From Candidatus Saccharimonadales bacterium (lineage in GTDB: Bacteria; Patescibacteriota; Saccharimonadia; UBA4664; SCTI01): a stretch of DNA of 64,000 nt. Positions 6,113 through 40,612 of this stretch are shown here, piece by piece. The notes below the pieces were generated by a model. The model was not told where the DNA came from and searched no databases. It was given only the letters and a program-made list of their open reading frames with translations. The translations under genes and the position numbers were made by a program. Where the stretch lies: contig DATIII010000008.1 of NCBI GenBank assembly GCA_035479795.1, forward strand, positions 30,487-94,486, given 5' to 3'. Each line of letters opens with the position of its first letter. The stretch's first letter is position 1.

Positions 6113-6615
6113 TTCTTGGCCTCCTTTTTGGCGGCAGGCTTCTTAACAGGAGCCTTTTTTGTCGAGGTCTTAACGTTGGTCGGCTTAACCTCAGCCTCTG
6201 GGACTGCTTCGGCTTTAGCTTTCGACTTCTCGGCCGGCTTGGCTGGAGTAGATTTAATCTCTTCGGTCAAAGCCACAATCGCCATGGCGGCGTTGTCGCC
6301 GCGGCGGTTACCGGCCTTCACGATCCGAGTATAGCCGCCATCGCGGTCCTTAAAAGCTGGCGCGATCTCAGTAATCAGCTTCTCCGTAGCCTTATCTGTC
6401 AAAAGGAAGCTGCGGATCTGACGCCGGTTGTGCAGATCACCCTTTTTAGCCTTGGTTACCATTCGCTCAAATTGTGGGGCAATCTCCTTGGCCTTGGCCA
6501 GGGTGGTAGAAATCTGTTCGTTCACCACCAGGGAAGTCACCTGGCCGCGAATCAGCGCCCGGCGAGGACCAGCATCGAGTTGCAGTTTTCTCCCTGCCAC
6601 TCCGTGGCGATGCAT
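6109..6615 (-). CDS. rplQ: 50S ribosomal protein L17 with Lys-rich C-terminal extension
   Basis: L17 core ([11 protein letters not shown]…) plus a ~45-aa KKPAAKK-type tail. Ends with a TGA stop, so TGA is used as a stop codon in this genome. Confidence 0.9.
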
Positions 6616-7559: not shown

Positions 7560-7707
7560 CTTCTAATTCCTTCCTTTTATATAAGCATTAAGCTGTTCGG
7601 TATATTTCATCGTTAAAACTTGCGCCGCGCGCTCGACGTACTCAAGTACGCCTCCCTTACACTGCTCGGTTTTCCTTGAACTATATCCAAACATCTCAAT
7701 CCTTAGG

Positions 7708-8325: not shown

Positions 8326-8465
8326 TTACTTCACTCCTCCGGAAAATTGCGGAGTTTTAGGGCAATCCAAGGAAGAATTGAGTACCGCAGGAAGCTGTAG
8401 AGATACTACAGTGCGCAAGGAACACAAATTCTGACGACGAATTGTGCAAAAGTACGCGGTTTTCA

Positions 8466-8864
8466 CTAGACTCTCCTTGGCTTTCTAGGGCGGCAGCCGT
8501 TATGCGGGATCCCGGTCACGTCCTTGATGCTGGCAACCTGGATATCAGCGGTTGAGAGAGCCCGAATAGCTGATTCGCGACCACTGCCAATTCCACGGAC
8601 AAAAACATTAACCTTTTGCATCCCAAATTCCTTGGCGCTGGCAGCAACCTTCTCGGCAGCCACACCGGCGGCATAGGGAGTGGACTTGCGGGAACCCTTG
8701 AAGCCGGCTCCACCTGAGCTACCCCAGGCCACTACATTGCCCTGCTCGTCAGTTACCGAAACAATGGTGTTGTTAAAGGTAGCGTGAACATGAACATTGC
8801 CAATTGCGATACTGCGCTTGACCTTGCGACGTCTCGATCCAGTTTTAGTTGTAGTCTTTGCCAT
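8466..8864 (-). CDS. rpsK: 30S ribosomal protein S11
   Basis: S11 signature sequence. Confidence 0.95.
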
Positions 8865-8874
8865 AAATTATTCC

Positions 8875-9261
8875 TTAAGTCTTGGCCGAAGCCTTCTTAC
8901 GACCCGAACCCATTGTGACCTTCTTGCCCCGCTTGGTGCGAGCGTTGGTCTTAGTGCGCTGACCATGGGCCGGCAAATTATTCTTGTGGCGCAGGCCGCG
9001 GTAAGCGTTGATTTCTTTCAAACGGCCAACAGCCAGCGACGTTAGACGTTGCAGGTCACCTTCGACGGTCAAATTCTTATCAATAAACTCCCGGATTTTA
9101 CCGACTTCAGCTTCAGTTAGATCCTTGACCCGAGTGTCCGGATTAATGCCGGCATCTCCCAGAATCTTCTGGCTAGTGGTTAGCCCGACTCCGTAAATAT
9201 AAGTTAGAGCAACCTCAACTCGCTTGCCATCTGGTACGTTGACTCCAGAAATACGCGCCAT
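8875..9261 (-). CDS. rpsM: 30S ribosomal protein S13
   Basis: [26 protein letters not shown]…. Confidence 0.95.
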
Positions 9262-9375
9262 CTACCCTTGCCTCTGCTTATGCTTGGGATTCTCACAGAT
9301 AACATAAACTGTCCCCTCGCGGCGGACAACCTTGCATTTGGCACACATTTTTTTAACGCTGGCTCGCACTTTCAT
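9262..9375 (-). CDS. rpmJ: 50S ribosomal protein L36
   Basis: Not in the ORF track because it is under 60 aa. Hand translation gives [37 protein letters not shown] (37 aa). Its TAG stop abuts the rpsM ATG. Confidence 0.9.
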
Positions 9376-9395
9376 GCTTACGCGTGTTCCCTTCG

Positions 9396-9623
9396 TTATC
9401 TATTTAAATGCCGGTAGGTGATGCGCCCCTTGGTCAGATCATAGGGCGTCATCTCGAGTGTAACTTTGTCACCAGGAAGAATCTTGATGTAATGCATGCG
9501 CATTTTCCCTGATATATGGGCCAAAACAACGTGACCGTTCTCGAGCTCTACCTTAAACATTGCGTTCGGCAGAGTCTCCAGGACGGTACCAGTGAGTTCA
9601 ATTACTTCCTTTGTATCTGACAT
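9396..9623 (-). CDS. infA: Translation initiation factor IF-1
   Basis: 75 aa with an S1-like fold, …[16 protein letters not shown]…. Confidence 0.95.
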
Positions 9624-9703
9624 AAGCTAGCTACAATTCGTCATTCTACAGAAAATTAACAGATGTGTAAAGGAGATTTTTGGAGGGTTATAGCTTTAGC
9701 TGC

Positions 9704-11017
9704 TTAGTAACTGTCATAGCTAATTTCAACCGCTCGCGATTGTAGCTGCTTCATAGTTTCAAGCGCAACAGAGACAACGATTAATAGCCCGGTGCCACCC
9801 AGGGTTAGGAGCTGAGTGTGAGTTAGTCCCTGCACAATAAACGGCAAAACGGCAATCAACCCAAGAGCGATCGAGCCAATTAAGGTCAGCCGGTTAACGA
9901 CATTTTCCAGATAGTTGGCCGTCTCATTACCAGGACGAATCCCAGGCACAAATCCCCCCTGCTTTTGCATGTTTTCGGCAATATCATGGGAATTGAAGAT
10001 TACGCCAGTGTAGAAGTAGGTAAAGGCCACCACTAGGGCAAAATAGCTGATCGCGTAGGTGACGCTGCCGGAGGCGAAGAAAGTAGTCATCCAATGCGCA
10101 AACTGCGACACCCAGTGGGTCTTGGCCCCATTAAGTAGCTGGCCCAAAAAGGTCGGGACCGACAGGAAGGCTAGGGCAAAGATAATGGGGATAACACCAG
10201 CTGTGATTAGGCGGATAGGCAGGTAGGTATCAACTCCTGAAAAAATTCGGTTCCCACGAACTCTGCGAGCATATGAGACCGGTATGGAGCGCTGTCCTTC
10301 ATTGAGCATCACCAAGATGAAGATAACGAGTAGACTACCAACGATAAACAGCGCGAGCTCAACCAGTTTGCCAGTATCATTGGCAACCAAGCTTAAGAAT
10401 TGACCGGCGCTAGAAGGCAGCCGAGCCATGATGCCGGCAAAGATCAGCAGCGAGATGCCATTGCCTATCCCCTTCTCCGTTATTAGCTCCCCGAGCCACA
10501 TCAAGAAGATTGTGCCCGCTGTCATCACCGAGATCATCAAAAACCATTGATATAACGACGGATTACCGATGATGTCAGTGCCAGAAATCTTGACTGAGCT
10601 CTGGCGGATTAGCACTACCATGCCGATGGATTCGACTATGGCCAAAGGGATAGTTAACAATCGGGTGTACTGATTAATTTTCCGCCTACCCTGCTCACCC
10701 TCCTTGCTCAAAGACTCGAGATGAGGGATGACCCGCGTCATCAGCTGGACGATAATTGAGGCATTAATATAGGGCCCGAGCCCCATCATAATAATCGAGA
10801 AGTTAGAAAGTGCACCGCCCGAAAAAAGGTCAGCGAAGCCCAGCAGCTGACTAGATCCAAATAGATTCTTTAAGAAAGCCGACAAAGCCTGATTATCCGG
10901 GACCGGAACTGGCACATATGACATAAAGCGAAAGATCACCAAAATGCCCAGCACCAGCAAGATACGCCGGCGCAACTCCGAAGACCGATAGGCTGTCTTT
11001 AGTGTTTCTAAATTCAT
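9704..11017 (-). CDS. secY: Preprotein translocase subunit SecY
   Basis: 437 aa with 10 TM segments and SecY motifs. It is followed directly by infA, with no adk or map. Confidence 0.95.
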
Positions 11018-11044
11018 ATGGCTACCACCAGCTTAGCAAACTTT

Positions 11045-11533
11045 TTAGGCTTTTGGCTGGCGATTTCGCTTTGACGGCTTCTTGGGAGTTTTGTCGATAG
11101 TCGCGGCCTTAAAGCTACCGCCGGCCTTCTCGATGGCCTCCTTAGCACCAGCCGTAGCTGCATGGACGTTAACCGATAGCTTCTTGGTTAGCCCACCGCT
11201 GCCCAGAATTTTAACCGGCTTGTCGGCCCGCTTGATTACACCCGCCGCAGCCAATGAGGCAGCAGTAACGGTAGAGCCTTTAAATTTTTCTAAGCGCGCC
11301 AAGGTAACTGTCTGATAGGTTGTTGGGTTTAGAGCTGCAAAACCGCGTTTCTTCGGAAGTCGCTTCGCCAGTGGGTTCTGGCCACCTTCAAACCCCGGGC
11401 GGACGCCGCCGCCAGAGCGCGAATTCTGACCTTTGGTACCCCGACCAGCGGTTTTCCCTTTGCCAGAGCCAATACCACGTCCCAGGCGTTTACCACTATT
11501 TAGCGCCTCAATTGTTAACTCATGAATTTTCAT
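11045..11533 (-). CDS. rplO: 50S ribosomal protein L15
   Basis: Gly/Lys-rich L15 sequence. It directly follows rpsE, so there is no L30 gene. Confidence 0.93.
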
Positions 11534-19592: not shown

Positions 19593-19615
19593 AGTTGATT
19601 CGTTAAGGAGTTATT

Positions 19616-19807
19616 ATGCGAACCTATTTTAATCGCATCACTAACCGTCATCTGGCGCAATTGATTTCTGTCTATGTCATCTTGATTTGCGTCTATGTAC
19701 TGGTCCCTGAATCAGTTGAATCAGTCCGACGGGCTTTGTCGGTAGTTGAAATTGGTGTGCTTGGGGCTATTTCGGTCATTATTTTCGACCGCATGCTCCG
19801 CGTCTAA
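19616..19807 (+). CDS. Small hydrophobic protein (63 aa, 2 predicted TM helices)
   Basis: Has its own promoter-like elements and a strong RBS. Hydrophobic core ISVYVILICVYVLV…IGVLGAISVIIF. Confidence 0.5.
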   Translation: MRTYFNRITNRHLAQLISVYVILICVYVLVPESVESVRRALSVVEIGVLGAISVIIFDRMLRV

Positions 19808-20046
19808 AATACTAGCGTAATACCAATACCAACCAAGCCAATGACGCAGGCTACGAGCAGTAAGGCGTATTCGATCTTGCGATCTAAGCCAAACTTTTCA
19901 TGCTGAGCCGCCAATAGACCCAGGATCAATCCTAGTGGGGCGACCCGTTGTCCCCGGTAGCTAACCCAGATGGTGCCAACTACAAAATAAATGAGGATTT
20001 TTAGAAAATATAAGGAGTCGGTCTGGCCGGCTCTTTTGCTTTGCAT
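19804..20046 (-). CDS. Small membrane protein (80 aa, 2-3 TM)
   Basis: Hydrophobic segments; overlaps the neighbouring ORF by 4 nt. Confidence 0.45.
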   Translation of the reverse strand: MQSKRAGQTDSLYFLKILIYFVVGTIWVSYRGQRVAPLGLILGLLAAQHEKFGLDRKIEYALLLVACVIGLVGIGITLVF

Positions 20047-20078
20047 AACCTAATTAAAGCATAACCGCTTTACAGGAT

Positions 20079-21281
20079 CTACATCTTTGTGTCGGGATTA
20101 TAAAACTTACGACCTTTGGCCTCCGGAGGTAAGAACCCTTCGGGATGCTCAAATCCAGGCTCCCATTTGGTGCCTTTTCCGTACCCCAGATCTTTCATCA
20201 GCTTAGTTGGGGCGTTGCGGAGGTGCAGTGGCGGTTCGGCGGCCGGAAACTCTTTAACAGCCGCACTGGCAGCCGCGATGGCGTTATAAGCCGTCCGCGA
20301 TTTGGGCGCCTTGGACATGGCAATTGTGGCTTGGGAAAGGATTATTCGGCTTTCTGGAAGCCCAATCCGTTCAATAGCCTGGAAGGTGACAGTCGCCAGT
20401 TGCAGCATGGAATGATCGGCCTCCCCAATGTCCTCGGAGGCAAAGATAACGATTCGCCGCGCAATAAACTTAGGATCCTCCCCGGCGTCAAGCATCCGGG
20501 CCAGATAAAACAAGGCGGCATCCGCATCACTCCCGCGCATGGATTTGATGAAGGCTGATATTAGGTTGTAATGGAACTCGCCTCCCTTGTCATACCGCAA
20601 GCTGGTTTTTTGCATGGCCTGCTTCACCGTCTCTGGAATAATTTTATCGGCAATGCCAGCTGCGGCTTCTAGGCCATTTAGAGCCACCCGACCATCTCCC
20701 GCCGCCAACTCCGCCAGCAAAGCCCTGGCGTCTTTGGACAATTTCTTATCCGGCAACTGCGCCATTGCCCTATCAATAAGCGTCTCAATCTGCTCTGTTG
20801 TCAGTGCGTTTAGCACCACCACCCGACTGCGCGACAGTAAAGGTGAAATCACCTCAAAAGATGGGTTTTCAGTGGTGGCGCCAATCAGAATAATTGTGCC
20901 GTTTTCGACGTGGGGTAGAAAGGCATCCTGTTGGGCCTTGTTAAACCGATGGATTTCATCCACGAATAAAACGGTTGAGCGCCCCAGATTCTGACGCTCC
21001 TTGGCCCGCTCAATCACCTTTTTAACATCTGGCAGCCCCGAAACTACAGCCGAAATCTCCTCAAACGCGTGACCGCCAGTAGAGGCAATAATCCTAGCCA
21101 ACGTCGTCTTACCACTGCCGGGAGGTCCCCAGAGGATGACCGACACTGGCTTACCAGACTCAACCAGTGCACGGATAAACTTACCCGGACCAACAAGATG
21201 TTCCTGGCCAATCAATTCTTCAAGTGCTCTTGGCCGAACTCTGTCAGCTAGCGGCTGGATCTGATTCTCGAACAAACTCAT
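20079..21281 (-). CDS. rarA: Replication-associated recombination protein A (AAA+ ATPase RarA/MgsA)
   Basis: Walker A WGPPGSGKTTLARIIA, an AAA+ core and the MgsA C-terminal helical domain. Confidence 0.9.
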   Translation of the reverse strand: MSLFENQIQPLADRVRPRALEELIGQEHLVGPGKFIRALVESGKPVSVILWGPPGSGKTTLARIIASTGGHAFEEISAVVSGLPDVKKVIERAKERQNLGRSTVLFVDEIHRFNKAQQDAFLPHVENGTIILIGATTENPSFEVISPLLSRSRVVVLNALTTEQIETLIDRAMAQLPDKKLSKDARALLAELAAGDGRVALNGLEAAAGIADKIIPETVKQAMQKTSLRYDKGGEFHYNLISAFIKSMRGSDADAALFYLARMLDAGEDPKFIARRIVIFASEDIGEADHSMLQLATVTFQAIERIGLPESRIILSQATIAMSKAPKSRTAYNAIAAASAAVKEFPAAEPPLHLRNAPTKLMKDLGYGKGTKWEPGFEHPEGFLPPEAKGRKFYNPDTKM

Positions 21282-21328
21282 AGCTAAATTATACCAGAGA
21301 AGCCGAACGCCAGCCGAACATTAATATG

Positions 21329-21787
21329 CTATTCGTATGCGTGCCGTACTTGGCGATATAAGTAGATAGTGGCAAGCAGAATTAGAGTGCCACTAATGGC
21401 ATGCCCCAAAAACAAGCTATGGACCAGATGGACAACGGCCCCTAATATCAGATAGCGCCAGCCCTTCAACTGTCGCTCAAAGACGGGCCGAACAGCCATG
21501 GCGATGAGTACAAATTCGATTATTAAGCTGATGGCGGCCCCACCGATATCGGTGTCGGTTGCCGGAACCCCGATAAATTCCAGGGGCAGAGCATGAATAC
21601 CCAGGGTAACCGCCAATGCGGCTACCGGGGCGAGAATTAGAGCAAAGACCAAAACCACCCAGCCGCCGTTTTGAACCAGCCATTCCTGGGCCCAATCTGG
21701 TAGATCCCACGAATCACGCGCTTGATAGTGCTTGATGGCGGCCTGGCGACCGCTGGTTATACGCTTAACTTTGCGCTGAGTAGCCAT
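21329..21787 (-). CDS. Integral membrane protein (4 TM), unknown function
   Basis: Four hydrophobic helices; no recognisable motif. Confidence 0.5.
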   Translation of the reverse strand: MATQRKVKRITSGRQAAIKHYQARDSWDLPDWAQEWLVQNGGWVVLVFALILAPVAALAVTLGIHALPLEFIGVPATDTDIGGAAISLIIEFVLIAMAVRPVFERQLKGWRYLILGAVVHLVHSLFLGHAISGTLILLATIYLYRQVRHAYE

Positions 21788-21846
21788 TTGTCTTGATGAT
21801 ACTACTTAGGCCATATAAGCAACAAGGAACAACCCTGTTGCGGGGG

Positions 21847-22308
21847 CTATTGGCGTGAGGCCGGGATACCAGCAGCACCTTGAATGGCGTAGGTGTCGCC
21901 AAAGCCATCGGCAGCACTTGATTTGGTTGGAACGGCAATTTGTTGGCCGGCTTCGGGAGCTCCAGCCGGAATAACGATGGCTTTTGCCTGATCAGCTCTG
22001 GCCGCATCAAAGGTCGTGTTTAGAGGCAAGATGGCTCCGCCAGGCAAGCTGCTTTCGGGCGAAATTGGCCGGGTATTAAGCAAATTTACAATAATTAAGG
22101 CAATCAGAGCCAGAAACGCTGCGGCGAAGGCGATCCAAATCGCAACATAGGTGGCTGGAACCGCATCGGTATCCGCGGATCTAGGCAACGGCATTGTCCC
22201 ACCGAGTGTTTCGCGGAACTCGATGTCTCGCATTCGATTTGCCTTCTTGATTGGCCGTGGCCGCCTGTCTTTCATCTCTCGCCTCCCATTACGAGACGAG
22301 CATAACAA
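21847..22308 (-). CDS. Single-pass membrane protein with Ala/Gly/Pro-rich extracytoplasmic tail, unknown function
   Basis: Basic N-terminus, one TM (YVAIWIAFAAAFLALIALIIVNLL), then a low-complexity tail. Confidence 0.45.
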   Translation of the reverse strand: MLCSSRNGRREMKDRRPRPIKKANRMRDIEFRETLGGTMPLPRSADTDAVPATYVAIWIAFAAAFLALIALIIVNLLNTRPISPESSLPGGAILPLNTTFDAARADQAKAIVIPAGAPEAGQQIAVPTKSSAADGFGDTYAIQGAAGIPASRQ

Positions 22309-22416
22309 GCTAGACTAATCTAAGAATTGGCTGAAATTCTAAATATTAAGACGCCTACCCACCTAACTGGTATTTGTCTTTAAGCCTAAAACTAAACGAT
22401 GTTTCGTAATTCAATC

Positions 22417-22436
22417 AGAAAACCCCCTTGCGGGGG
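22417..22436 (-). terminator. Terminator/attenuator-like GC hairpin 8 nt downstream of rpsJ stop
   Basis: CCCCC-ttgc-GGGGG stem preceded by an A-run on the plus strand, giving a T-run after the hairpin on the minus strand. It shares the 11-mer TTGCGGGGGCT with 21836-21846. Confidence 0.45.
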
Positions 22437-22444
22437 CTCTTCTG

Positions 22445-22917: not shown

Positions 22918-24099
22918 TTACTTGATGATCTTGGTTACTACCCCGGCGCCAACAGTGCGGCCGCCTTCGCGGATGGCGAAGCGCAGACCCTCTTCCATGG
23001 CGATAGGGGCGATTAGTTTAACTTTCATGGCGATGTTGTCGCCCGGCATAACCATCTCAGTGCCTTCTGGCAGTTCAATCTCTCCAGTCACGTCAGTAGT
23101 CCGGATGTAGAACTGCGGCTTGTAACCCTTGAAGAATGGGGTATGGCGGCCGCCTTCGTCCTTCTTTAAGACATAGACTTCGCTATCAAACTCGGTATGC
23201 GGGGTAATTGAGCCTGGCTTGGCAATAACCTGACCGCGCTCAATGTCGTCGCGCTCGATACCACGGAGCAGAACTCCCACGTTATCGCCGGCCTGGGCAT
23301 CATTAAGCAGCTTCTTGAACATCTCAACGCCGGTAACGGTAGTCTTTTTGTTGGGGCGAATGCCGATAATCTCGATTTCATCACCCACCGACACCTTACC
23401 CTGTTCAATCCTACCGGTGGCCACAGTGCCACGACCCTTGATAGAGAAGACATCTTCGATCGGCATCAGGAAAGGCTTATCAACTTCACGCTTTGGCTCC
23501 GGCACGGACTCATCCATGGCCTTAACCAGGTCAAGAATGGCCTTTTCAGCATCGGCGTCGCCTTCCAGAGCCTTGAGGGCAGAGCCCTTAATAACTGGGG
23601 CATCTTTGTCGAAGCCTTGCTTTTCAAGCAATTCACGGACTTCGATCTCCACCAGCTCAGCTAGCTCAGGATCGGCCATGTCCATCTTGTTCATAAAGAC
23701 CAAGACGTACGGCACACCAACTTGGCGAGCTAGCAAAATGTGCTCGCGAGTCTGAGGCATTGGGCCGTCAGCGGCCGAAACCACTAGAATGGCACCGTCT
23801 ACCTGGGCAGCACCAGTGATCATGTTCTTCACATAGTCAGCGTGACCAGGCATGTCGACGTGAGCGTAATGCCGCTTCTCGGACTCGTACTCCTGGTGCG
23901 AGGTGGCAATAGTAATACCACGCTGCTTCTCTTCGGGAGCGTTATCGATCTCGTCGTACTTAACTGGTTGGTTAATTTCACTCGGCATGTGCTTGGCTAG
24001 CACGGCGGTGATAGCGGCTGTCAGGGTGGTCTTACCGTGGTCGACGTGACCCATGGTACCGACGTTGACATGCGGCTTGGTGCGCTTGAATTCTGCCAT
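22918..24099 (-). CDS. tuf: Elongation factor Tu
   Basis: [17 protein letters not shown] and NKMD motifs; 393 aa. Upstream is a ~200-nt leader with a TTACAA-16-TATACT promoter-like element and an AAGGAG RBS. Confidence 0.97.
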
Positions 24100-24271
24100 T
24101 CTTTCTCCTTATTGGACTTCATTTCAGATTGATAATCGCTTCTCGCTTGGGCGATCAGCTATCTGCCATGAAGTGGGTTGTTAATATTTTTGGACAATAA
24201 AATAAATGCCCGGGTTTGGACTTTTCATAGTATAAGGAGGAATTACACCTTTGTAAAGAGGTAAACAGGTC

Positions 24272-24297
24272 AAAAGGCGGCCCGTTATCGGACCGCC
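24272..24297 (-). terminator. Hairpin terminator after ORF 24311..24751
   Basis: GGCGGCCC-gttatc-GGACCGCC (7/8 bp), followed by a T-run on the minus strand. Confidence 0.45.
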
Positions 24298-24310
24298 CTC
24301 AACATCTGAA

Positions 24311-24751
24311 CTATAGTGGGGCCATGAAGGCCTCCGCCATCTGGAGTAAGACTACCTGTTGCTCTTTCGGCACTTCCCAGATGTCATCGAGACACCGACG
24401 AGCCTGCTCTGGTGGAACGACGATCCCGACACTTCTGAAAAAGGGCGGATCCTGTACCGTGAAACCATGGCCCATTAAGAGTCCTGCTTCGATGTCGCGA
24501 TAACTACCCGTTACCTGGGTCGGATACAGCAAAGGGAACTCTGCTGCGCCGGGTGTTCCTTGATCACGGAGAACTCTTAGGCGAGCCATCGCCTGGCCGA
24601 ACCGCTCATGATGCTCACGGCCGCTTGTATCAACCACCTTACAGCCCGCTACTGCGAGAGTGGCAATAAAGGCCTCGATGAAGTGTCGATAAATACCATC
24701 TGCATCACTGTGCTGAAGTGACATGGCACTCCCGATCTGTTGTGGTCTCAC
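24311..24751 (-). CDS. Hypothetical protein (146 aa), island gene A
   Basis: Long ORF with a terminator downstream and no recognisable motif. The start may be the internal Met MSLQHSDADGIYRHF…. Confidence 0.45.
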   Translation of the reverse strand: MRPQQIGSAMSLQHSDADGIYRHFIEAFIATLAVAGCKVVDTSGREHHERFGQAMARLRVLRDQGTPGAAEFPLLYPTQVTGSYRDIEAGLLMGHGFTVQDPPFFRSVGIVVPPEQARRCLDDIWEVPKEQQVVLLQMAEAFMAPL

Positions 24752-24897
24752 CTGGGAGGATTATAGCAAAGTACCTGATAATAAAACTCTTGTGCTGGGC
24801 TGTGGCTTTGCTAGGATTGCTCTTGCACCTTCGACAAATCACCTTCTCATAATTCCCCTCACGAATAGATCCCACGGGAAAACGAGAGGAGGTGAAC

Positions 24898-25428
24898 ATG
24901 GAACAGGAGGACGACCAGGTGGTCGACGAGCCCGAGGCCGCAACGGCCGAGGCCAGCGACGGCGTGGATAGCAGTGGCAGTGACGGCAGCGGCGAGCCCG
25001 CGGCCGAGGAGAACGACGCCGGCAACGGCGGCGAGTCCGGCGAAGACGCCGACGACGTGACCGAGGAGACCGTGGCGGAGACGCCCGAATCCGAAGTCGC
25101 CGAGGACGGCGCCGAGACCGGCGGCAACGACGGCAGTGACGACGAAGCCGAAGCTGAAGACGGCGAAGACGACGAGGTTCTGGCAGAGGAGCCCGGCGAG
25201 GACGACGAGCAGGCGGAGGACGAGACGCCGAGCCTCGAAGACGCCGTAGCGGCAAGTGAGGTAGTGACAAGCTACCTCAAGGCACAGGGTGCCGAAGCCG
25301 CAGCGGATGACGAGGTAGCTGAAGTCGAGGACGACGCGGAAGCCGAGGCCGAGGAGGAGACTCCCGAAGCCGAAGCTGAGCCCGGCGGCGGCGAGGAGCC
25401 GGCCGACGCGGACGCCAGCGCCGAGTAG
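24898..25428 (+). CDS. Hyper-acidic low-complexity protein (~176 aa, roughly 40% Asp+Glu), island gene B
   Basis: A GAGGAGG RBS lies 5 nt before ATG 24898. A perfect 11-bp terminator hairpin follows the stop. The opposite-strand ORFs in this region are Arg-rich shadows. Confidence 0.6.
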   Translation: MEQEDDQVVDEPEAATAEASDGVDSSGSDGSGEPAAEENDAGNGGESGEDADDVTEETVAETPESEVAEDGAETGGNDGSDDEAEAEDGEDDEVLAEEPGEDDEQAEDETPSLEDAVAASEVVTSYLKAQGAEAAADDEVAEVEDDAEAEAEEETPEAEAEPGGGEEPADADASAE

Positions 25429-25449
25429 ACCCTTCACGGGGGTCCCATT

Positions 25450-25480
25450 GGGGTCCGGGAGCAAATCCCGGACCCCTTTT
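25450..25480 (+). terminator. Rho-independent terminator after acidic-protein gene
   Basis: GGGGTCCGGGA-gcaaa-TCCCGGACCCC (11-bp perfect stem) followed by TTTT. Confidence 0.8.
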
Positions 25481-25490
25481 ACGTATTTAC

Positions 25491-25521
25491 TTAGGATTCA
25501 GAATTTAGGATTAAGGATCTA
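25491..25521. repeat. Left inverted repeat (TTAGGATTCAGAATTTAGGATTAAGGATCTAG), partner at 26901-26933
   Basis: The reverse complement of 26901-26933 matches at about 24 of 26 core positions. Internally it is reiterated AGGATT units. Confidence 0.6.
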
Positions 25522-25570
25522 GTTCGGAATGTATAAATGCGTTGCGGGAGGCTGAGTTGCCCCAGCCCCC

Positions 25571-25969
25571 TCAGGTGACGAACAAACGGATTTGGTCAGG
25601 ACCCGGTCGGCGCATCAAGCGCTGGAAAAACATTTCGACCACCAGGTACTCATGCAAGCCCTCTATGGCCATGACAAACTCGGGGATACCGCCGCTACAA
25701 CCGCAGCCGTAACAAGTGAATCCACCGTTGTCGTAGAGCGCCAAAGACGGAGTCCGTTCAGCGTGGAAGCAGCAATGCATAACCATGCGGTTTGACCCAG
25801 GAGTCGGCCGCTTGGCGTCTCCGGACCCGAGCTCTTCCAACCGTCGTCCAAAGTGCTCGAGGATGACCGGCCAGCCGAGACCACGCCACTCTTGGATTTG
25901 CCATTGCGGAATGAGATTGATCAGCTCGCGCTGTCGGCTGTCAGTGAGGAAATGGCGCTGGGCGGCCAT
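25571..25969 (-). CDS. CHC2 zinc-finger (DnaG-primase-type) domain protein, 132 aa, island gene C
   Basis: CCFHAERTPSLALYDNGGFTCYGCGCSGGIPEFVM matches the primase zf-CHC2 consensus CPFHxEKTPSF…CFGCGxxG…F. There is no Toprim domain, so it is a stand-alone finger or a primase fragment. Confidence 0.6.
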   Translation of the reverse strand: MAAQRHFLTDSRQRELINLIPQWQIQEWRGLGWPVILEHFGRRLEELGSGDAKRPTPGSNRMVMHCCFHAERTPSLALYDNGGFTCYGCGCSGGIPEFVMAIEGLHEYLVVEMFFQRLMRRPGPDQIRLFVT

Positions 25970-26217
25970 TAACGGCCCCAGCCAGGTTCAAAGGCCTCAA
26001 CTATGCCGAGACAGATGGTTCCGTCTTCTTTCCAGATCACACCAAATCTCCATGTCGATGTTCAAGTAGTACCCCCGTCAAGGCGATAGCCTGCAGGAAA
26101 CCACCAGGACGGGGGTGCCCAGATTATAGCTTACTGAACTCAAAATTTGACAGCACAAGCGGTTAAGCCCATACTGGCCGCAACGTAGTACCTACCATCC
26201 CAACCACAGGAGGAGAC

Positions 26218-26799
26218 GTGAGTACCACCCTCGCCACCCCACCGCAGGCCGCCATGCCGGCGGTCCTCAGGCCGCTCTCCGACATGCAGAAGCTGCTGGT
26301 GCAGCTGGCCGACCGCGAGATCGAGACCTACACCTCCAAGCAGGTGCAGACTCACAAGGATGCCTGGCGCGCACATGTCTTGCGTGTCGGCTTCATCAGG
26401 GCCATAACGCTCAGCATCATCGCTGGCTGCTGGCTGATCAGCATGATCGCTCTGTACGGCCTGGATCTGTTCGGCGTCATGAACTTCCCGATCTCCGACG
26501 GCCTCGCCGCCCTCGGCATTCTCGGCAGTATCAGTGCCGCGCTGGCTGCAGGCTTCTTCATGGGAGGCCGGTGGGTCATTTACACCTACGCCGACTACGC
26601 CACCCGCTACACCGTCCCCGACGTGGCCCGGAGGATCGCCGTCGGCGCAATGACAATCCCCGGGGTCAAGATCCACGTCGATCGCTTGAAGAGTGACCCG
26701 GTCATGTGGGCGCACCTCGGTACCGCCCAGGTCTGCATCGCCATCTGGAAGAAGCCCGGGTACCACCAGCCGCTGATCATGCCCGAGGACATCCAGTAA
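26218..26799 (+). CDS. 2-TM membrane protein with C-terminal soluble domain (193 aa), island gene D
   Basis: AGGAGG RBS 5 nt before GTG 26218. Two hydrophobic helices, and a terminator hairpin 20 nt after the stop. The long opposite-strand ORF 26140..26832 is rejected as a shadow. Confidence 0.55.
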   Translation: MSTTLATPPQAAMPAVLRPLSDMQKLLVQLADREIETYTSKQVQTHKDAWRAHVLRVGFIRAITLSIIAGCWLISMIALYGLDLFGVMNFPISDGLAALGILGSISAALAAGFFMGGRWVIYTYADYATRYTVPDVARRIAVGAMTIPGVKIHVDRLKSDPVMWAHLGTAQVCIAIWKKPGYHQPLIMPEDIQ

Positions 26800-26817
26800 C
26801 CGCCCTCGGCATGCGAA

Positions 26818-26848
26818 GGGCCCGCCAATCACGGCGGGCCCTTCTTCC
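26818..26848 (+). terminator. Rho-independent terminator after island gene D
   Basis: GGGCCCGCC-aatcac-GGCGGGCCC (9-bp perfect stem) followed by TTCTTCC. Confidence 0.7.
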
Positions 26849-26861
26849 GTTCGGGATGCGG

Positions 26862-26933
26862 GATTCAGGATACGGAATTAAGCAATAAAGTTAAAAGTGT
26901 CCTGAATCCTTAATCCTGAATTCTGGATCCTGC
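26862..26933. repeat. Compound palindrome after the fusA stop: GGATTCAGGA (26862-71) … TCCTGAATCC (26901-10), with the right inverted repeat 26901-26933
   Basis: A perfect 10-nt inverted pair separated by 29 nt. The right arm extends as TCCTGAATCCTTAATCCTGAATTCTGGATCC, the inverted partner of 25491-25521. Confidence 0.55.
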
Positions 26934-26934
26934 T

Positions 26935-29025
<2,091 letters not shown>

Positions 29026-29987: not shown

Positions 29988-32900
29988 TTACTCTGATTCT
30001 ACCGGTGTGTCAATCTGTTGGGCGGGGTCGGCGTCGCCGGCTCCGCCCGATGCGTCGGCTTCGGCCCCAACGGCTACTGGAGTAGCTTCCTCAGCTGCCT
30101 GACGGGCCCGAAAACCGGTACCCACAGGTGTCAAACGGCCGATGATCACGTTTTCCTTGAGGCCACGAAGCTTGTCAACCTTCCCGCGGATGGCGGCACC
30201 AATCAGCACGCGACTGGTGTCCTGAAAGCTAGCAGCTGACAAGAAAGAGTCAGACGAAACCGAAATCTTGGTAATTGGCAGTAGTAGCTGCTCAAAGGTG
30301 GCAGGCTTCTTGCCGGCCTCCTCCAGCTCTTCGTTTTCTTCAATCACGCTCATGCGGGAAACAATGTCGCCGGTTACAAACAAGCTGTCACCTGGTTCCT
30401 CAATCTGAACCCGTGAGAACATCTGGCGAATGATGATCTCGATGTGCTTGTCGGCAATGGTTTGACCCTGACTGGCGTAGATCGACTGGACCTCAGCCAC
30501 GATGTAGTTTTGGACAGCCCCTTCACCGAGCAGCAGCAGCATGTCTTGCAGGTTAATTGAACCTTCGGTTAAGCGCTGACCCTTGGTAACCAAATCACCA
30601 TTTTTAACTTCAATTTCCTGATAAGCCGGAATGGTGTGGTCGCGGGTAGCGCCACCGGCGTGGGTAACCGTAATCTTGTCCTTATGAACTTCAACCGATC
30701 CTTCGACCTTGCTCTTTAACGCCTTCTTGCCCTTGGCATCGGCGGCCATGACATCACCAACCTGGACGGTATCTCCGGTCTTTACCTCGGGAATGCGATC
30801 GCCCAGCTCATAGTCGGTCATTTTCAGGTTAGTTGGGGTTATGCGAATAATCGTCTTGCCACTGGCTTCTTTAATTTTAACCACGCCGTCGATTTCGGCC
30901 AGAACGGCCTGACCCTTCGGACTACGGGCTTCAAAGATTTCTTCAACCCGCGGTAGACCCTGGGTAATATCAGCGCCGGTCAGACCCGAACCCTTGTGGA
31001 AGGTACGCATCGTCAGCTGGGTGCCCGGCTCACCAATACTCTGGGCGGCAATAACGCCGACCGGCTCACCCATCTCAACCATGTGACCACGGGCCAGATC
31101 GACACCATAGCACTGGCGGCAGATACCCCAGAAGGTCTTGCATTCGAGTACACTGCGCACACTGACGTCTTCGACACCGGCCTTGACGATTGCTTCAGCC
31201 AAATCATCAGTAATCAGCTGTCCAGCCTTAACTAGCGTTTTGCCATCGGCCTTAACAGCTTGGGCAGCCACCCGGCCGGCCAAACGGGTGTTAAAGCTTT
31301 CGCCAATCGATTCGGATTCAGCACGGGTAACCAAGCTGCCCTTCTTATCACCGCAGTCTTCTTCGGTGACGATCACGTCTTGAGCGACGTCAACCAAACG
31401 GCGGGTAAGATAACCCGATTCAGCCGTCTTTAGAGCCGTGTCGGTTAGACCCTTACGAGCGCCGTGGGTGGAGCTGAAGTATTCTAGGCCAGAAAAGCCT
31501 TCTTTGTAGCTGGAGCGAATCGGCAGCTCAATGATGCGACCGGTTGGGTTGTTGACCAAGCCGAGCATGCCAGAAATCTGGTTTACCTGGCTGAAGTCGC
31601 CACGAGCACCCGATTCAACATAGAGGCCAATGGTAGCTTCGTTACCCACCAAGGCACTTTCAAGATCGGCCTTAATCTGTTCATTGGTCTTCTGCCAAGC
31701 CTCAATGGTTCGGCGATAACGCTCTTCGTCGGTAATCAGCCCCATTTCATACTGCTTGGAAATTTCAACCACCTTGGCTTCACCCTGGGCAATTAACTCT
31801 TCTTTATTGGCAGGAACCACGAAGTCATCCACACCAATCGACATACCGGAGAAGGTGGCGTAGCGGAATCCCAGGTCTTTAATGTCGTCCACTACTTCGG
31901 CAGTAGCTTCTGGACCAGCCGAAACAAAGATTTCGGCCACTAGAGTCTGCAGCTTCTTCTTGGTCATGGTTTCGTTACGGAAAGGCATATCCTCAGGTAG
32001 AACGTTGTTAAATAGGATACGGCCAACGGTAGTTTCTACACGCTCACCGCCAATCGGTACGCTAATCTTGGTCTGCAGCTTGATAGCGTCAACATCCAGG
32101 GCATAAATAGCCTCGTTCTTATCCTTAAAGTGTTTGACTTTGTCGTCTTTGAATTTTTCGTAGGTCAGGTAGTAACAACCGAGCACCATATCCTGGGATG
32201 GGTTAACTACCGCAGCGCCATCAGCTGGCTTCAGCAGGTTACGAGTAGCCAGCATGATCTGCTTGGCTTCGGCTTGAGCAGCTTCCGAAAGCGGCACGTG
32301 AACCGCCATTTGGTCGCCATCGAAGTCGGCATTAAAGGCGGCACATACTAGCGGGTGCAACTGAATAGCCTTGCCTTCGATCAGTCGCGGCTGGAAGGCC
32401 TGGATACCCAAACGGTGGAGGGTTGGAGCACGGTTGAGTAACACATACTTTCCAGCAATGATCTCTTCCAGAGCATCCCACACCTCAGTGCGAGCACGCT
32501 CAATCATCCGACCAGCACTTTTTACATTATGGGCCAGGTCTTGTTCAATCAGTCGGGCCATCACGAACGGCTTAAACAATTCAAGCGCCATCATCTTGGG
32601 CAGACCACACTCGTAGAGCTTCAGGTTTGGACCGGAAACAATCACCGATCGTCCGGAGTAGTCTACACGCTTACCGAGTAGATTCTGACGGAAGCGACCC
32701 TGCTTCCCTTTTAGCATGTCACTCAAACTCTTGAGCTTGCGACGAGTGTTGGTCGAGCTAACAGCGCGCTCACGGCGGGCGTTGTTATCGACCAAGGCGT
32801 CTACGGCCTCCTGGAGCATCCGCTTTTCGTTTCGGCGGATGACTTCTGGGGCATCAAGCTCAATCAGGCGCTTCAAGCGATTGTTGCGGTTAATTACGCG

Positions 32901-33881
32901 GCGATAGAGATCGTTAAGGTCAGAAGCCGCAAACCGACCACCAGCCAACTGCACCATCGGACGCAGATCCGGCGGAATAACCGGCAGTTCAGTAACCACC
33001 ATCCACTCGGGACGGATACCGGCGCCCTTCATACCTTCCAGCATCTTCAGACGCTTTAGGGTCTTCTTTTTCTTCTGCCCGGTGGATTCTTCGGCCTCTT
33101 TGGTTAGTTCGTCGACCAGCCCATCAACATCAATTTCAGTCAACAGATTACGGACGGCCTCGGCGCCAATTTCGGCGCGGAAGACGTCACCATACTTCAG
33201 GTTCAAATCACGATATTTGGCTTCAGTTAGCAGCGCCAAACGAGCCAGACCTTCCAGCTCTTCCTTGGCATTGTTATAGCTGGCTTCCAGGTCGCTTAAT
33301 TCGCGAGACTGGCTGGCCGCCACTGCTTTGACATCAGCATCCTTGGCGCCAGCTTGCTTGGTGTGATCCTTTTCAATGTCGGCCTTGCGGGTTTTGTAGT
33401 CGGCCTCAAGGTCAACCAGAGCTTGCTTGCGGCGATCATCATCGACATCAGTCACAATGTAATTGGCAAAGTAAACAACGCGCTCCAGGTCACGAATACT
33501 CATATTTAGGACCAAGCCGATTGAGCTGGGAGTTCCACGCAGGAACCAAATGTGGGTCACCGGTACTGCCAAGCTAATGTGGCCCATGCGCTCGCGGCGA
33601 ACAATGCTACGGGTCACGCGGACACCACACTTATCGCAAACTACGTCCTTATAACGAATTCGCTTGTACTTACCGCAGTAGCATTCCCAGTCCTTGGTAG
33701 GGCCAAAAATGCGTTCGCAGAACAAGCCGTCTTTTTCCGGCTTTTGGGTACGATAGTTAATGGTCTCGGGCTTGGTAACCTCACCGTGCGACCAGTCGAG
33801 AATTTGGGTTGGGCTGGCTAGAGAAAGCCGTACCGCAGTAAATTCACTAGCTGTTTGGTCAATTGTTTCAATCGGGTTCAT
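29988..33881 (-). CDS. rpoC: DNA-directed RNA polymerase subunit beta'
   Basis: NADFDGD catalytic motif, zinc-binding Cys cluster and the full beta' architecture. The preferred start is ATG 33881 (MNPIETID…), with a GAGGAGG RBS and lying 1 nt after the rpoB TAA. The track start at 33935 would overlap rpoB. Confidence 0.95.
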
Positions 33882-33882
33882 C

Positions 33883-36800
33883 TTAAGCCTCCTCTCCTTC
33901 CGCGTCACCGGCCGTGGCAACGGCTTCCAATTCATCTTCCTGGCCAGCTGCTAAATCTACCAGCGGCATGTCAGCCACGGCGTCGCCAACTAGAAGCTCA
34001 TCTGTACCTAGCTCGTTCGCTTCAGCACGAGTTTCCTCGGCCAAAACTTCTTCAGCATCGACTTCCCCACTCTCGGCGCGGACTAATTCCACACTCAGGG
34101 TCAAGCTCTGCAGTTCCTTCACCAGCACATTAAAGGATTCCGGAATACGCGGGCCGCGGATTTCTTCGCCCTTAATAATCGCCTCGTAGGCTTTAGAGCG
34201 GCCGACCACATCGTCGGATTTAATCGTCAGGATTTCCTGTAAGGTGTTCGATGCGCCATAAGCTTCCAGGGCCCAAACTTCCATTTCGCCGAAGCGCTGA
34301 CCACCGCGCTGCGCCTTACCGCCCAGCGGCTGCTGGGTGACCATGGCGTATGGTCCGGTGGAACGAGCGTGGATTTTGTCATCCACCATGTGGACGAGCT
34401 TCAACATGTACTTGTAGCCAACCGTAGTCCGCTCTTGGAAGGGCTCACCGGTGCGGCCGTCGAATAGCTGAGCCTTGCCGTCTTCGGGTAGGCCGGCCTT
34501 CTTTAACTCTTCTTTAATCTGATCAATCTTCACTCCCTGGAACACCGGCGAAGCCGCGGTGTAGCCCAGAGCGGCGGCGGCCCAGCCCAGGTGAGTTTCA
34601 AAAACCTGACCCAGATTCATACGAGCGCCGACGCCCAGCGGATTTAAGATCATGTCTACTGGACGGCCATCGTCCATGTAAGGCATATCTTCAATCGGCA
34701 GAATTCGGGCAATTACGCCCTTATTACCGTGACGGCCGGCCATTTTATCACCCACCGAGATCTTGCGTAGCTGGGCGACCGAAACATGGTATTCCTCGAT
34801 AACACCGGCCTGCAGTTCATCGCCACCGGCGCGGCTGAATACCTTAACACCAACCACCTTACCGCGCTCACCATTTGGCAGGCGCAGGCTGGAATCTTTA
34901 ACATCACGAGCTTTTTCACCAAAAATGGCACGAAGCAGTTTTTCTTCACTGGACAGCTCCTGCTCACCCTTGGGCGTAATCTTACCAACCAGAATGTCTC
35001 CGGCAGCGACTTCGGCACCGATGCGGACAATACCACTTTCGTCGAGATCCTTCAGACTATCTTCGGAAACATTGGGAATATCGCGGGTTACAACTTCCGG
35101 ACCCAACTTGGTGTCGCGAACGTCCACCTGGTAGGTCTCAATATGAATTGAACTATAGCGGTCGTCTTCAACCAAACGTTGGCTGATAATGATCGCGTCT
35201 TCGAAGTTATAACCGCCCCAGGGCATGAAGGCGACCAAGATGTTCTGGCCCAGAGCCAGCTCACCCTTATCGGTCGACATGCCGTCGGCCAGGATGTCAC
35301 CCTTCTTCACCTTCTGGCCGTTTTCAACGACGGTTTTCTGGTGAATACCGGTACCAACGTTTGAGCGGACGAAGTTCAAGAGTGTGTAGGTCTGCTCGCC
35401 ACCCTTTTCATAATTGACGGTAATTTCACTGGCAGTGGCTTTGGTAACCACACCGTTACCTTCGGCCACAATCACCTGGGCACTATCGCGAGCCACTACC
35501 TCTTCCATCCCGGTGCCGACAATCGGCGCCTGCGGACGGATCAAGGCCACGGCTTGCTTCTGCATGTTCGAAGCCATCAGCGCGCGCTTAGCGTCGTCGT
35601 GCTCAATAAACGGAATTAGCGCGGCCGAAACCGACACAATCTGCTTGGTTGAAACATCCATGAAGTCAACTTCATTGGCATCCAGCTCTTCGGCGTTACC
35701 TAAGCGTCGGGCACCGACACGGGCGTCAACAAAGTAGCCATCATCATCCAGTCGGGTTGAGGCCTCAGTGATAACGTACTTTTCTTCATCGGCGGCGTCC
35801 ATATAAACAACTTCATTGGTTGCGCGAGCCTTAACCGGGACCATTTCGACAGTTTTGGCTAACTTTTTGGCAGTAGCGTCACTAATCTTGTCACCGGGCT
35901 TAACAATCACATTGCCTTTGTCATCTTTGATCGTGGTACGGGCGATGTGGCCGGCAGCCTCGGCGGCTGGCACGTTGTTTAGAATCTTGCGATAGGGAGT
36001 TTCAATAAACCCATATTCGTTAATCTGAGAATAGGTAGACAGGTTGGAAACTAGGCCAATGTTCGGGCCTTCTGGGGTCTCGATGGGGCAGATGCGGCCG
36101 TAGTGACTACGGTGCACGTCGCGGACTTCGAACCCAGCTCGCTCGCGGCTGAGACCACCGGCACCCATGGCAGTAATGCGTCGCTTGTGGGCAATCTCCG
36201 ACAGTGGGTTGGTTTGGTCCATAAACTGAGATAGCTGGGAGCTGGCAAAGAATTCCTTAACGCTGGCCACAATCGGGCGCACATTAATCAGCTGCCCGGG
36301 AGTCACGGTGGCGCGATCGTAAACCGACATACGGTCTTTAACGTTGCGCTCCATGCGCATTAGACCCACGCGGAAGCGTGCCTGGATTAGCTCACCAACC
36401 ATCCGCAGGCGACGATTAGCCAGGTTATCGATATCCTCGGCTGGATCACCGGTGTTGTTTAAGCGAATGATCTCTTTGACAATCTCCACCAGATCTTCAC
36501 GACGGAAAATGCGGTTTTCGAAGGTATTTTTAACATTCAAGTTTAGGCGCTTGTTGATTTTGTAGCGGCCAACCTTGGAGAAGTCATAGCGTTTTGGGTC
36601 AAAGAACATGCCCTCAATCAGCGTGCGTGAGTTTTCCACTGTTGCCAGGTCACCTGGGCGAATACGGCGGTAGACTTCCATCAGCGCCTCGCTCTGGTTG
36701 GCAGCCGCGTCTTTATCGAGAGTTTCTTTAGTGAAGTTGGTCTCGCCAGTTTCAACTTCTTTAAACAATCCCTTAATTTCGTCATCACCATACCCAAAGG

Positions 36801-40528: not shown

Positions 40529-40612
40529 TGGTGGGGATGAAAGGACTTGAACCTTCACGCCTTGCGGCACTAGTTCCTAAAACTAGCGTGTCTACCATTC
40601 CACCACATCCCC
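40529..40612 (-). tRNA. tRNA-Leu (anticodon UAG), type II with long variable arm, CCA encoded
   Basis: Hand fold: acceptor stem GGGGATG/CATCCCC, D-arm, anticodon stem CTAGT/ACTAG with loop TT-TAG-GA, variable arm TGCCGCAAGGCGT, T-arm GAAGG-TTCAAGT-CCTTT, discriminator A and CCA. Confidence 0.8.

Follow-up and report, generated by a model that had tools for sequence, protein, structure and literature searches.

Is the adjacency of fusA and tuf so fixed in bacteria that DNA found between them must be a recent intruder? The question is raised by a 64,000-nt stretch of contig DATIII010000008.1 from a Candidatus Saccharimonadales bacterium (this whole stretch is referred to below as the window), in which the two genes, both on the minus strand, are 2,835 nt apart: the fusA stop codon lies at 26935–26937 and the tuf ATG at 24099. 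A preliminary description, made from the sequence alone, had recognised that the genes are separated by 2.8 kb rather than by tens of nucleotides and that the gap holds four small open reading frames (ORFs) in alternating orientation, here named orfA to orfD. Both statements agree with the measured gap and with the ORF list. The description went on to read the gap as a recently acquired mobile or phage-derived cassette that had split an ultra-conserved junction. We come to a different view. The gap almost certainly houses a real accessory islet, and the account we favour, with moderate confidence, is a composite one, in which a small accessory islet occupies a safe harbour between operons and has not newly broken into an operon that tolerates no interruption.

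A first issue is whether the junction is real. An assembly chimera – foreign reads wrongly joined between fusA and tuf in a metagenome-assembled genome – would be in keeping with the abrupt step in composition inside the contig, and the preliminary description had raised this concern. The same sequence is nonetheless present in three separate per-run assemblies (Logan SRR9179559/61/62) at 99.96–100% identity, and one Logan contig (L002) spans the whole islet, with one end within tuf (24037) and the other within fusA (27081). Because the independent per-run assemblies agree, and because one contig crosses both junctions, a mis-join at either border of the islet is very unlikely. Two NCBI assemblies carry the region, one of them GCA_964594805.1 (contig CAZQMU010000003.1), the islet proteins are deposited as HSX41572–HSX41575, and relatives share the same orfD architecture. 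A chimera is, to our minds, scarcely credible.

The gene order of the window, nearly all of it on the minus strand, runs rpoB, rpoC, rpsL, rpsG, fusA, the 2,835-nt gap, tuf, rpsJ, a second gap, and rplC with the remainder of the S10 operon. The four products in the first gap are those originally described: an ORFan of 146 aa (a 137-aa form is favoured), an acidic protein of ~176 aa, a CHC2 protein of 132 aa and a protein of 193 aa with two transmembrane helices. Each ORF had been credited with its own strong Shine-Dalgarno (SD) sequence and hairpin. This is so for orfA, orfB and orfD, which have good SDs and hairpin/T-run terminators, but not for orfC, the SD of which is weak (GGGG) and which lacks a canonical terminator.

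Central to the interpretation of the islet is the promoter of tuf. New DNA can enter translation operons neutrally at one kind of place only, after the final stop codon of one unit and ahead of the promoter of the following one; the break-up of the supercluster begins with small multigene insertions (Brandis et al. 2019, PMC6735719). The islet lies between the fusA stop (26935) and the predicted tuf −35 box (24257), which is an inter-operon position in exactly this sense. The sequence TTTACA-N17-TAYAMT upstream of tuf is invariant in all five genomes compared (the window, the relatives L093 and L094, and the outgroups L006 and L007), with or without an insert, and in L007 it begins ~10 nt past the fusA stop. 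Since it is conserved in relatives that carry inserts and in relatives that do not, we take the predicted tuf promoter to be ancestral and not to have been acquired with the islet. An insertion between the fusA stop and this promoter would leave tuf expression coupled, because tuf would have a promoter of its own. The preliminary description was therefore right to see a promoter-like element ahead of tuf, but the leader that follows is ~125 nt in length and not ~200 nt, and an element conserved in five genomes is not one that tuf has newly gained.

The leader is itself conserved within the clade (promoter plus leader: 24100–24257 on the minus strand of the window, 6562–6745 in L093 and 7779–7905 in L094). 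It contains a box, AGTCCAA..GGGC.TTTATTTTATTG, and a hairpin in which stem bases differ between the window and L093. A scan of 22.3–27.2 kb against Rfam gave no match at E up to 1; the leader may be a lineage-specific cis-regulatory element.

The second line of evidence comes from the same junction in relatives, for which three or four members of the clade and two near outgroups were available. EF-Tu of the clade relatives is 91.6–92.6% identical to that of the window, as against 79–80% for L006 and L007; the corresponding figures for EF-G are 75–85% and 66–68%. In L094, a 39-kb contig, an orfD-like gene (P0012) convergent to fusA stands between fusA and tuf, with nothing else between it and tuf. 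In L093, a 916-kb contig, the order from fusA to tuf is a tRNA-Arg gene, an orfD-like gene (P0011) opposed to fusA, a 78-aa ORF (h78) and a dihydroorotate dehydrogenase gene (DHOdh), the last two in the orientation of tuf. A third contig, L101, carries an orfD-like gene (P0007, 47% identical to the L093 copy) that adjoins the same DHOdh, and the slot is probably the same. The islet's orfD is 28–34% identical to its syntenic homologues in L093 and L094, whose GC content at third codon positions (GC3) is host-like in L093 (0.71 against about 0.72) and near the top of the host range in L094 (0.67 against 0.43–0.68). Because orfD homologues hold the same slot, convergent to fusA, in both relatives, the opening of the junction probably dates back to the base of the clade, and occupancy by orfD is, on this synteny, fairly likely to be ancestral. 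The islet can hardly then be a four-gene cassette of recent arrival. By comparison, orfA, orfB and orfC are absent from the junction in L093 and L094, the nearest relatives fetched, and in L006 and L007, as befits accessory genes. The L007 junction is tight (fusA to tuf ~100 nt, no insert) and that of L006 is occupied by another gene, for a PALP enzyme, which runs on the opposite strand. When S12, S10 and EF-Tu were looked up by exact match to find strain-level relatives, only the same population came back.

Nor is the junction inviolable elsewhere. Our survey, a small sample, covered at least 80 fetched EF-Tu loci, in 44 of which fusA lies upstream on the same strand; among the matches listed, the median fusA–tuf gap at these 44 loci is ~64 nt. 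Four gaps among the matches listed exceed 500 nt, three of them in Patescibacteria and one in an unclassified metagenome-assembled genome (L085). Their contents differ: the PALP enzyme in L006 (Saccharibacteria), a 169-aa Cys-rich ORF in L022 (Gracilibacteria), an 81-aa ORF in L067 (Patescibacteria), and two pilin-like genes with a 93-aa ORF in L085. Of four Patescibacteria loci among the matches listed, one (L007) has a tight junction. In the window the rpsJ–rplC pair is also split, by ~3.3 kb (19600–22440) of host-like composition holding ORFs of 153 and 152 aa, RarA/MgsA (400 aa) and ORFs of 80 and 63 aa. The 152-aa ORF, RarA and the 80-aa ORF of this second gap are common to L093, and the 152- and 80-aa ORFs to L094, so this break is in part a feature of the clade. 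Together the long gaps and the second break argue that the fusA–tuf junction is not inviolable in Patescibacteria, where it is often split, and the label "ultra-conserved" is not borne out. Such a label is an unsafe prior in this phylum, and neither fusA–tuf nor rpsJ–rplC adjacency is suited to serve there as a sanity check on assemblies.

Two small observations were made at these junctions. The 81- and 93-aa ORFs directly upstream of tuf in L067 (9582–9827) and L085 (5729–6010) look alike by eye ('...GERIVILSD/GDRIIVFDN...P..EYE/QYENL.G'). In L093 the tRNA-Arg(GCG) gene between fusA and the orfD-like gene (8547–8618) has an 18-nt partial copy of its anticodon arm ~120 nt upstream (about 8735–8752), and this partial duplicate may be the scar of an integration at the same junction.

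The third line of evidence is base composition, for which 26 long host genes of the window served as the reference (GC3 0.576 ± 0.026, maximum 0.629). GC3 is 0.54 in orfA, 0.80 in orfB, 0.684 in orfC and 0.876 in orfD; the values for orfB and orfD lie 6–8 binomial standard deviations from that of the host and exceed those of all ~60 ORFs of the window. GC reaches 0.71 in the islet (300-nt windows) against 0.48–0.55 in its flanks, the ends of fusA and tuf next to the islet are host-like in GC, and tetranucleotide distance peaks over the window at 24.5–26.5 kb (z about 5, 1.5-kb windows). The preference extends to single amino acids: GAC and GAT are used for Asp 25 and 2 times in orfB, compared with 369 and 428 times in host genes. 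A GC3-rich codon usage, judged by eye in the preliminary description, is confirmed by computation for orfB, orfC and orfD, and the composition is non-uniform. It does not extend to orfA, the GC3 of which is within the host range, while in codon preference it scores lowest of all in the window, under every host gene tested. With orfA at 0.54 the islet is not one compositional unit; the foreign-looking tract is that from ~24.86 to 26.85 kb (orfB, orfC and orfD) and not the entire gap. The unameliorated GC3 of these three genes suggests a GC-richer source for the alleles now present, whether by arrival or by replacement, and we consider a horizontal origin of orfB–orfD likely. In this respect the original impression of accessory DNA of foreign composition was sound, given the strong deviation of orfB–orfD and the absence of orfA–orfC from the junction in the four other genomes.

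Last, no mobility machinery was found in the islet. Searches of the four ORFs against Pfam, PHROGs and NCBIfam found no integrase, recombinase or transposase – the CHC2 finger was the sole match – and there is no further plausible ORF of at least 50 aa. No tRNA target or flanking direct repeats (att sites) are present at the islet; the only tRNA gene of the window is at 40529–40612. Because mobility genes, att sites and a tRNA were not found, the islet is best described as cargo and not as an active element: nothing inside its 2.8 kb can move it now, and it does not qualify as the mobile element it had been taken for.

From the anatomy of the locus, its composition, synteny, the conserved promoter and the missing mobility genes we infer the following order of events. 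In this Saccharimonadales lineage tuf would be transcribed from its own ancestral sigma-70-type promoter, which ancestrally lay a few nucleotides past the fusA stop. An orfD-type gene, convergent to fusA and sharing a terminator zone with it, would have been the first to open the gap, and this probably happened at the base of the clade. The stretch between orfD and the tuf promoter would then have turned over: it is empty in L094, is filled by DHOdh and h78 in L093 and L101, and by orfC, orfB and orfA here, with orfA, orfB and orfD forming what look like monocistronic units. The present alleles of orfB, orfC and orfD most likely arrived, or were replaced, horizontally from the Saccharimonadales/phage gene pool. 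A GC3 of 0.70–0.83 exists in that same pool (in relatives and elements, L093 and L095), so an actinobacterial donor is not needed.

Several observations weigh against this sequence of events. The copy of orfD in the window has the highest GC3 of the four genes (0.88), an odd property in a resident of vertical descent; the replacement of its allele has to be invoked as an extra step, and no donor or recombination tract was found. Pairwise identity within the orfD family is ~28–36% whether the genes are syntenic or not, and members also occur at other sites. Identities are saturated, so vertical descent and repeated capture are indistinguishable by this measure, and repeated independent capture of orfD-like genes at the same site is possible. 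An inverted repeat placed around exactly orfC and orfD is left unaccounted for by the safe-harbour model. By their SD and terminator signals orfA and orfB are putative functional genes, and a clade represented by three or four members and two near outgroups is thinly sampled.

How do other explanations fare? The reading closest to the preliminary description is that a four-gene phage or plasmid cassette was inserted once, and recently, from a high-GC donor such as an actinobacterial host, with a role in anti-restriction, superinfection exclusion or defence. It draws on the strongly foreign GC3 of orfB, orfC and orfD, on the relatives of the CHC2 finger in phage contigs and PHROG families, on the extreme acidity of orfB, and on the lack of counterparts of the four ORFs in the outgroups L006 and L007. 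Yet orfD homologues already occupy the slot in relatives, orfA is host-like in GC3 so that the block is not a compositional unit, and integrase, transposase, att site and tRNA are all missing. Protein and DNA searches of 50,697 phage and 72,556 plasmid records gave no usable match for orfA, orfB or orfD, and these three are likewise without homologues in IMG/VR. No actinobacterial relative came to light among 5.8 billion proteins (word-indexed search) or in 1.84 billion (full HMMER scan), and the PADLOC defence models matched nothing besides a generic zinc ribbon. The proposed actinobacterial donor in particular finds no backing: the 5.8 billion proteins include no close homologue of orfA or orfD, and those relatives of orfD whose contigs are of sufficient length for ribosomal-protein synteny are of Saccharimonadales type, with none in the phage or plasmid records. 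We judge such a recent cassette unlikely. The converse proposal, that all four genes are native and vertically inherited and that their GC3 excess is a local mutational or selective peculiarity, can call on the synteny of the orfD family, on the acidic low-complexity tails of the host proteins L19 and RpoC, and on the occurrence of the islet's heptamer repeat type in a native gene. Against it stand the GC3 of 0.80–0.88, above that of all other window ORFs, the free use of GAT and GAA in the acidic tail of L19 (GAT:GAC 7:4, against 2:25 in orfB) and the absence of orfA, orfB and orfC from L093 and L094. This proposal appears improbable.

A different kind of challenge comes from the repeats. A 26-nt inverted repeat (25493–25518 and 26906–26931; 92% identity, unique in the window, none expected by chance) flanks exactly orfC and orfD, and each of the two plus-strand genes, orfB and orfD, is followed by a terminator and then a heptamer array. 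The arrays at 26899–26931 and 26854–26882 can pair as a hairpin in the 3′ untranslated region of fusA (RNA fold z = −4.4). It might be supposed that orfC plus orfD (25493–26931) is a non-autonomous inverted-repeat cassette that is moved by functions supplied in trans and directed to the 3′ flank of fusA as Tn7 is to glmS, with the arrays as recombinase or transposase sites. Only 3 nt separate the right arm from the fusA stop, the arms are built of four to five tandem 7-nt units with an extra inner array, much as in multi-site transposon ends, and orfD-like genes share this site in several genomes but lie elsewhere in others. Tn7-like insertion takes place downstream of a conserved gene (attTn7 at glmS), and the islet resembles it in having an inverted-repeat segment a few nucleotides past the stop of a conserved gene and ends of repeated short units. 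It differs in lacking Tns-like proteins, any other transposase or recombinase, an autonomous partner and a target duplication: the outer flanks of the repeat, ATTTACTT and GCTTTAGG, are not duplicated. It differs also in that the syntenic orfD-like genes of L093 and L094 are without such arrays, and the other orfD-like loci fetched are without a strict three-unit GGAT-N3 array. A related array in rnhB, moreover, suggests a short repeat resident in the genome and not the ends of an element. We give the cassette very little credence, and not much more than that to a pair of alternatives under which the islet would, if either were true, be more than passive: either the fusA 3′ flank is a dedicated landing site for small cassettes of a new kind, each comprising a gene, a terminator and an AGGATTC array with a recombinase encoded elsewhere (orfC–orfD being one such), or the orfD family is a clade-specific membrane protein long kept convergent to fusA by a functional tie to the expression of translation-factor genes. 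The arrays themselves could be repeats of the host of a repetitive extragenic palindromic (REP)-like kind, sites for protein binding or the ends of a cassette. Within the 64 kb the repeat pair occurs once, apart from the short related array just mentioned (GGTTTCAGGATGCGGGATTGAGGATCCAGATT; 57658–57689, minus strand), which forms the last codons of the RNase HII (rnhB) ORF, overlaps the start of the next gene and matches 26854–26871 at 17 of 18 nt.

Viewed alongside known systems, the safe-harbour reading places the islet with small multigene insertions such as bfd-bfr-hopD, between str and S10 in Salmonella (PMC6735719). The likeness lies in a few genes, none apparently mobile, set between the stop of one unit and the next promoter, with collinear flanks and the downstream promoter kept. 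Unlike those insertions, the break here (fusA|tuf) falls within a unit that E. coli keeps as one str operon, as the dedicated tuf promoter makes possible, and the genes, in part foreign in composition, are either ORFans or of mobile-element type. Capsule and O-antigen loci are variable islets between conserved core genes that are swapped by homology in their flanks. The fusA–tuf islet has in common with them conserved borders (fusA and tuf), contents that vary among relatives, and divergent, compositionally odd alleles; but it is tiny (1–3 kb), and no recombination tracts were detected in its flanks. With tuf under its own promoter, the fusA–tuf gap acts like any other gap between operons and collects lineage-specific genes. 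It follows from the position of orfD, highly anomalous in GC3 yet in a slot probably occupied since the origin of the clade, that a GC3 anomaly alone cannot date an insertion. What we have is an ordinary accessory islet, made up of a zinc-finger gene of mobile-element type, one gene from a new membrane-protein family and two ORFans. Nothing in it is a major surprise; what is new is the small, unnamed two-transmembrane family with a DP...C.A.W[DE]xPG C-terminal domain. The features of the locus are collected in Table 1.

Table 1. Features of the fusA–tuf islet and its borders (positions in the window)
Feature	Position	Strand	Basis
tuf, EF-Tu, 393 aa; downstream border of islet	22918–24099	−	ORF list
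tuf 5′ leader, ~125 nt, conserved box and long hairpin (about 24116–24174) before the SD	24100–24228	−	relatives, RNA fold
tuf promoter (predicted), TTTACA-17-TATACT	24229–24257	−	best promoter-like site in the region; conserved
Terminator-like hairpin and T-run 3′ of orfA, directly upstream of the tuf −35 box	24272–24297	−	read from sequence
orfA, 137 aa, ORFan (146 aa from GTG 24751)	24311–24724	−	ORF list, codon usage
orfB, 176 aa (178 aa from GTG 24892), hyper-acidic, low-complexity, strong AGGAGG SD	24898–25428	+	ORF list, composition
orfB intrinsic terminator, 11-bp stem then TTTT run	25450–25476	+	sequence
Left arm of 26-nt inverted repeat, heptamer array	25493–25518	+	inverted repeats
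orfC, 132 aa, stand-alone CHC2 zinc-finger protein	25571–25969	−	Pfam PF01807, PHROGs, PDB 1d0q
Promoter-like site of orfD, TTGACA-17-CATACT; AGGAGG SD at 26209–26214	26147–26175	+	sequence
orfD, 193 aa: N-terminal helix, two transmembrane helices, small C-terminal alpha/beta domain	26218–26799	+	HMMER, AlphaFold, synteny
Perfect 12-bp GC hairpin (GAAGGGCCCGCC/GGCGGGCCCTTC), orfD terminator, barrier between convergent fusA and orfD	26815–26844	.	inverted repeat, RNA fold
Degenerate heptamer array just after the orfD terminator	26854–26882	+	inverted repeats
~4.7 tandem 7-nt units (AGGATTC type), 3 nt past the fusA stop	26899–26931	−	inverted repeats; Tandem Repeats Finder, period 7
fusA, EF-G, 696 aa; upstream border of islet	26935–29025	−	ORF list, Pfam domains

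Judged by sequence comparison, orfD founds an uncharacterised and very fast-evolving two-transmembrane family. With orfD as the query, full HMMER over 1.84 billion cluster representatives yielded ten remote homologues (24–37% identity, E from 2e-10 to 8e-4), all of which align end to end with orfD and have two transmembrane helices; in orfD itself the hydrophobic helices are at about residues 54–88 and 92–117. Six residues are invariant in the family (W119, P134, D160–P161, C173 and W177), and the C-terminal motif reads DPxL...G....C[IV]A[IV]W[DE]xPG. In an AlphaFold model built from the family alignment (predicted local distance difference test, pLDDT, 79) an N-terminal helix is combined with a transmembrane hairpin and a small alpha/beta domain; the model has no significant match in PDB or BFVD. 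No Pfam family covers these proteins, PADLOC gave no match for three of the homologues, and IMG/VR gave none for the family alignment or for orfD and orfA as single queries. Two scans of JGI metagenomes with family alignments returned pattern matches, none of them confirmed by tblastn, a confirmation that is probably too strict at 25–30% identity.

Where contigs with an orfD relative are long enough for ribosomal-protein synteny (L093 and L094) they are of Saccharimonadales type, and all fetched contigs with a relative have 52–57% GC; the family appears to be confined to Saccharimonadales-like genomes. Family members at other sites adjoin a Mur ligase gene (L099/L100) or belong to a block of small ORFs (L095–L098), the context in L102 being uninformative. 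A guess, and a weak one, is that orfD is an envelope-anchored accessory protein under diversifying pressure; its family is a candidate for studies of the envelope or of phage interaction in these epibionts. The block in L095–L098 (Logan SRR26786765-71, 1250–11300) was seen in 10 contigs: the orfD-family gene sits among ~15 small co-directional ORFs without family match, with a divergent HTH_3 regulator and an adjoining 3,053-aa protein that has an acetyltransferase domain. The block has the look of a phage or mobile element, but it contains no hallmark phage gene, the helix-turn-helix regulator being its sole match.

The product of orfC is the one islet protein with a recognisable fold. It matches PF01807, the CHC2 zinc finger that forms the zinc ribbon of DnaG (E = 4.7e-9), with the C-x2-H-x15-C-x2-C motif intact; it aligns with the DnaG zinc-binding domain of PDB 1d0q (1e-5) with all four ligand residues kept, and it matches the small phage proteins of PHROG families 11992, 360 and 2304. 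TIGR01391 covers it over model positions 35–78 of 414 only (score 31.9, cutoff 283.6). Neither a TOPRIM catalytic core nor a helicase-interaction domain is present, and we rejected the idea of a truncated primase pseudogene, as the DNA downstream leaves no room to encode the remainder.

Three relatives of orfC (P0003, P0004 and P0005) were found in the word-indexed search of 5.8 billion proteins. P0003, 53% identical, shares a GC-richer patch (L086, 9570–13100; GC 0.56–0.61 against 0.42–0.50 for the genes at its left) with the gene of a DnaB-like AAA_25 ATPase, which it adjoins, and with ORFs without assignment; a PIN gene is close by, and the patch probably represents an integrated element's replication module. 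P0005 is on a contig with terminase and portal genes and P0004 on a contig of 923 nt; the N-terminal region of ~60 aa is common to orfC, P0003 and P0004 only. Queried with the orfC-family alignment, IMG/VR returned 38 loci, mostly full-length primases (344–1,092 aa) that share the finger alone, together with eight small ORFs of 158–251 aa; orfC as a single-protein query found no match there. A tblastn search with orfC over the fetched loci hit only those of the known homologues (L086–L088), and PADLOC gave a weak zinc-ribbon match to the primase-like domains of DRT models and nothing else. The PHROG matches and the neighbours of P0003 and P0005 bear out the earlier statement that stand-alone CHC2 fingers belong to the phage and mobile-element pool. 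With such proteins orfC shares an intact finger and a similar size; it differs from them in having no TOPRIM or helicase partner in the islet and in its specific N-terminal region. That orfC is a DNA-binding remnant of, or a regulator from, the replication module of a mobile element is, again, a weak guess.

The two remaining genes are ORFans. In orfA, gene callers and a GGGAG SD favour the ATG at 24724 (137 aa) over the GTG at 24751 (146 aa), and a single-sequence structure model is poor (pLDDT 45). The product of orfB consists of Asp and Glu to 41%, has an isoelectric point of about 4 and is probably disordered. Neither of these two proteins, nor orfD, matched anything in Pfam, PHROGs, NCBIfam or PADLOC; the search of 5.8 billion proteins gave self matches alone for orfA and orfD, and tblastn against L086, L093–L101 and every other fetched locus found no homologue of orfA or orfB. 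A 133-nt match of orfB to a mycobacteriophage was discounted as low-complexity. Nor does orfB show similarity in Pfam, PHROGs, NCBIfam or PADLOC to anti-restriction DNA mimics (ArdA, Ocr and the like), and its acidity alone is not diagnostic of DNA mimicry. Any role of the islet proteins in defence or anti-restriction we consider doubtful.

Two minor observations concern the islet genes. An imperfect 23-nt palindrome (ACCCCCGTCAAGGCGATAGCCTG / CAGGAAACCACCAGGACGGGGGT; 26071–26116) lies in the intergenic region between the divergent orfC and orfD and may be an operator. Acidic low-complexity C-terminal tails are present on native L19 (58348–59043) and RpoC (29988–33935), so acidic disorder is not in itself foreign to this genome; the tail of L19, with GAC and GAT used 4 and 7 times, follows host codon preferences, unlike orfB.

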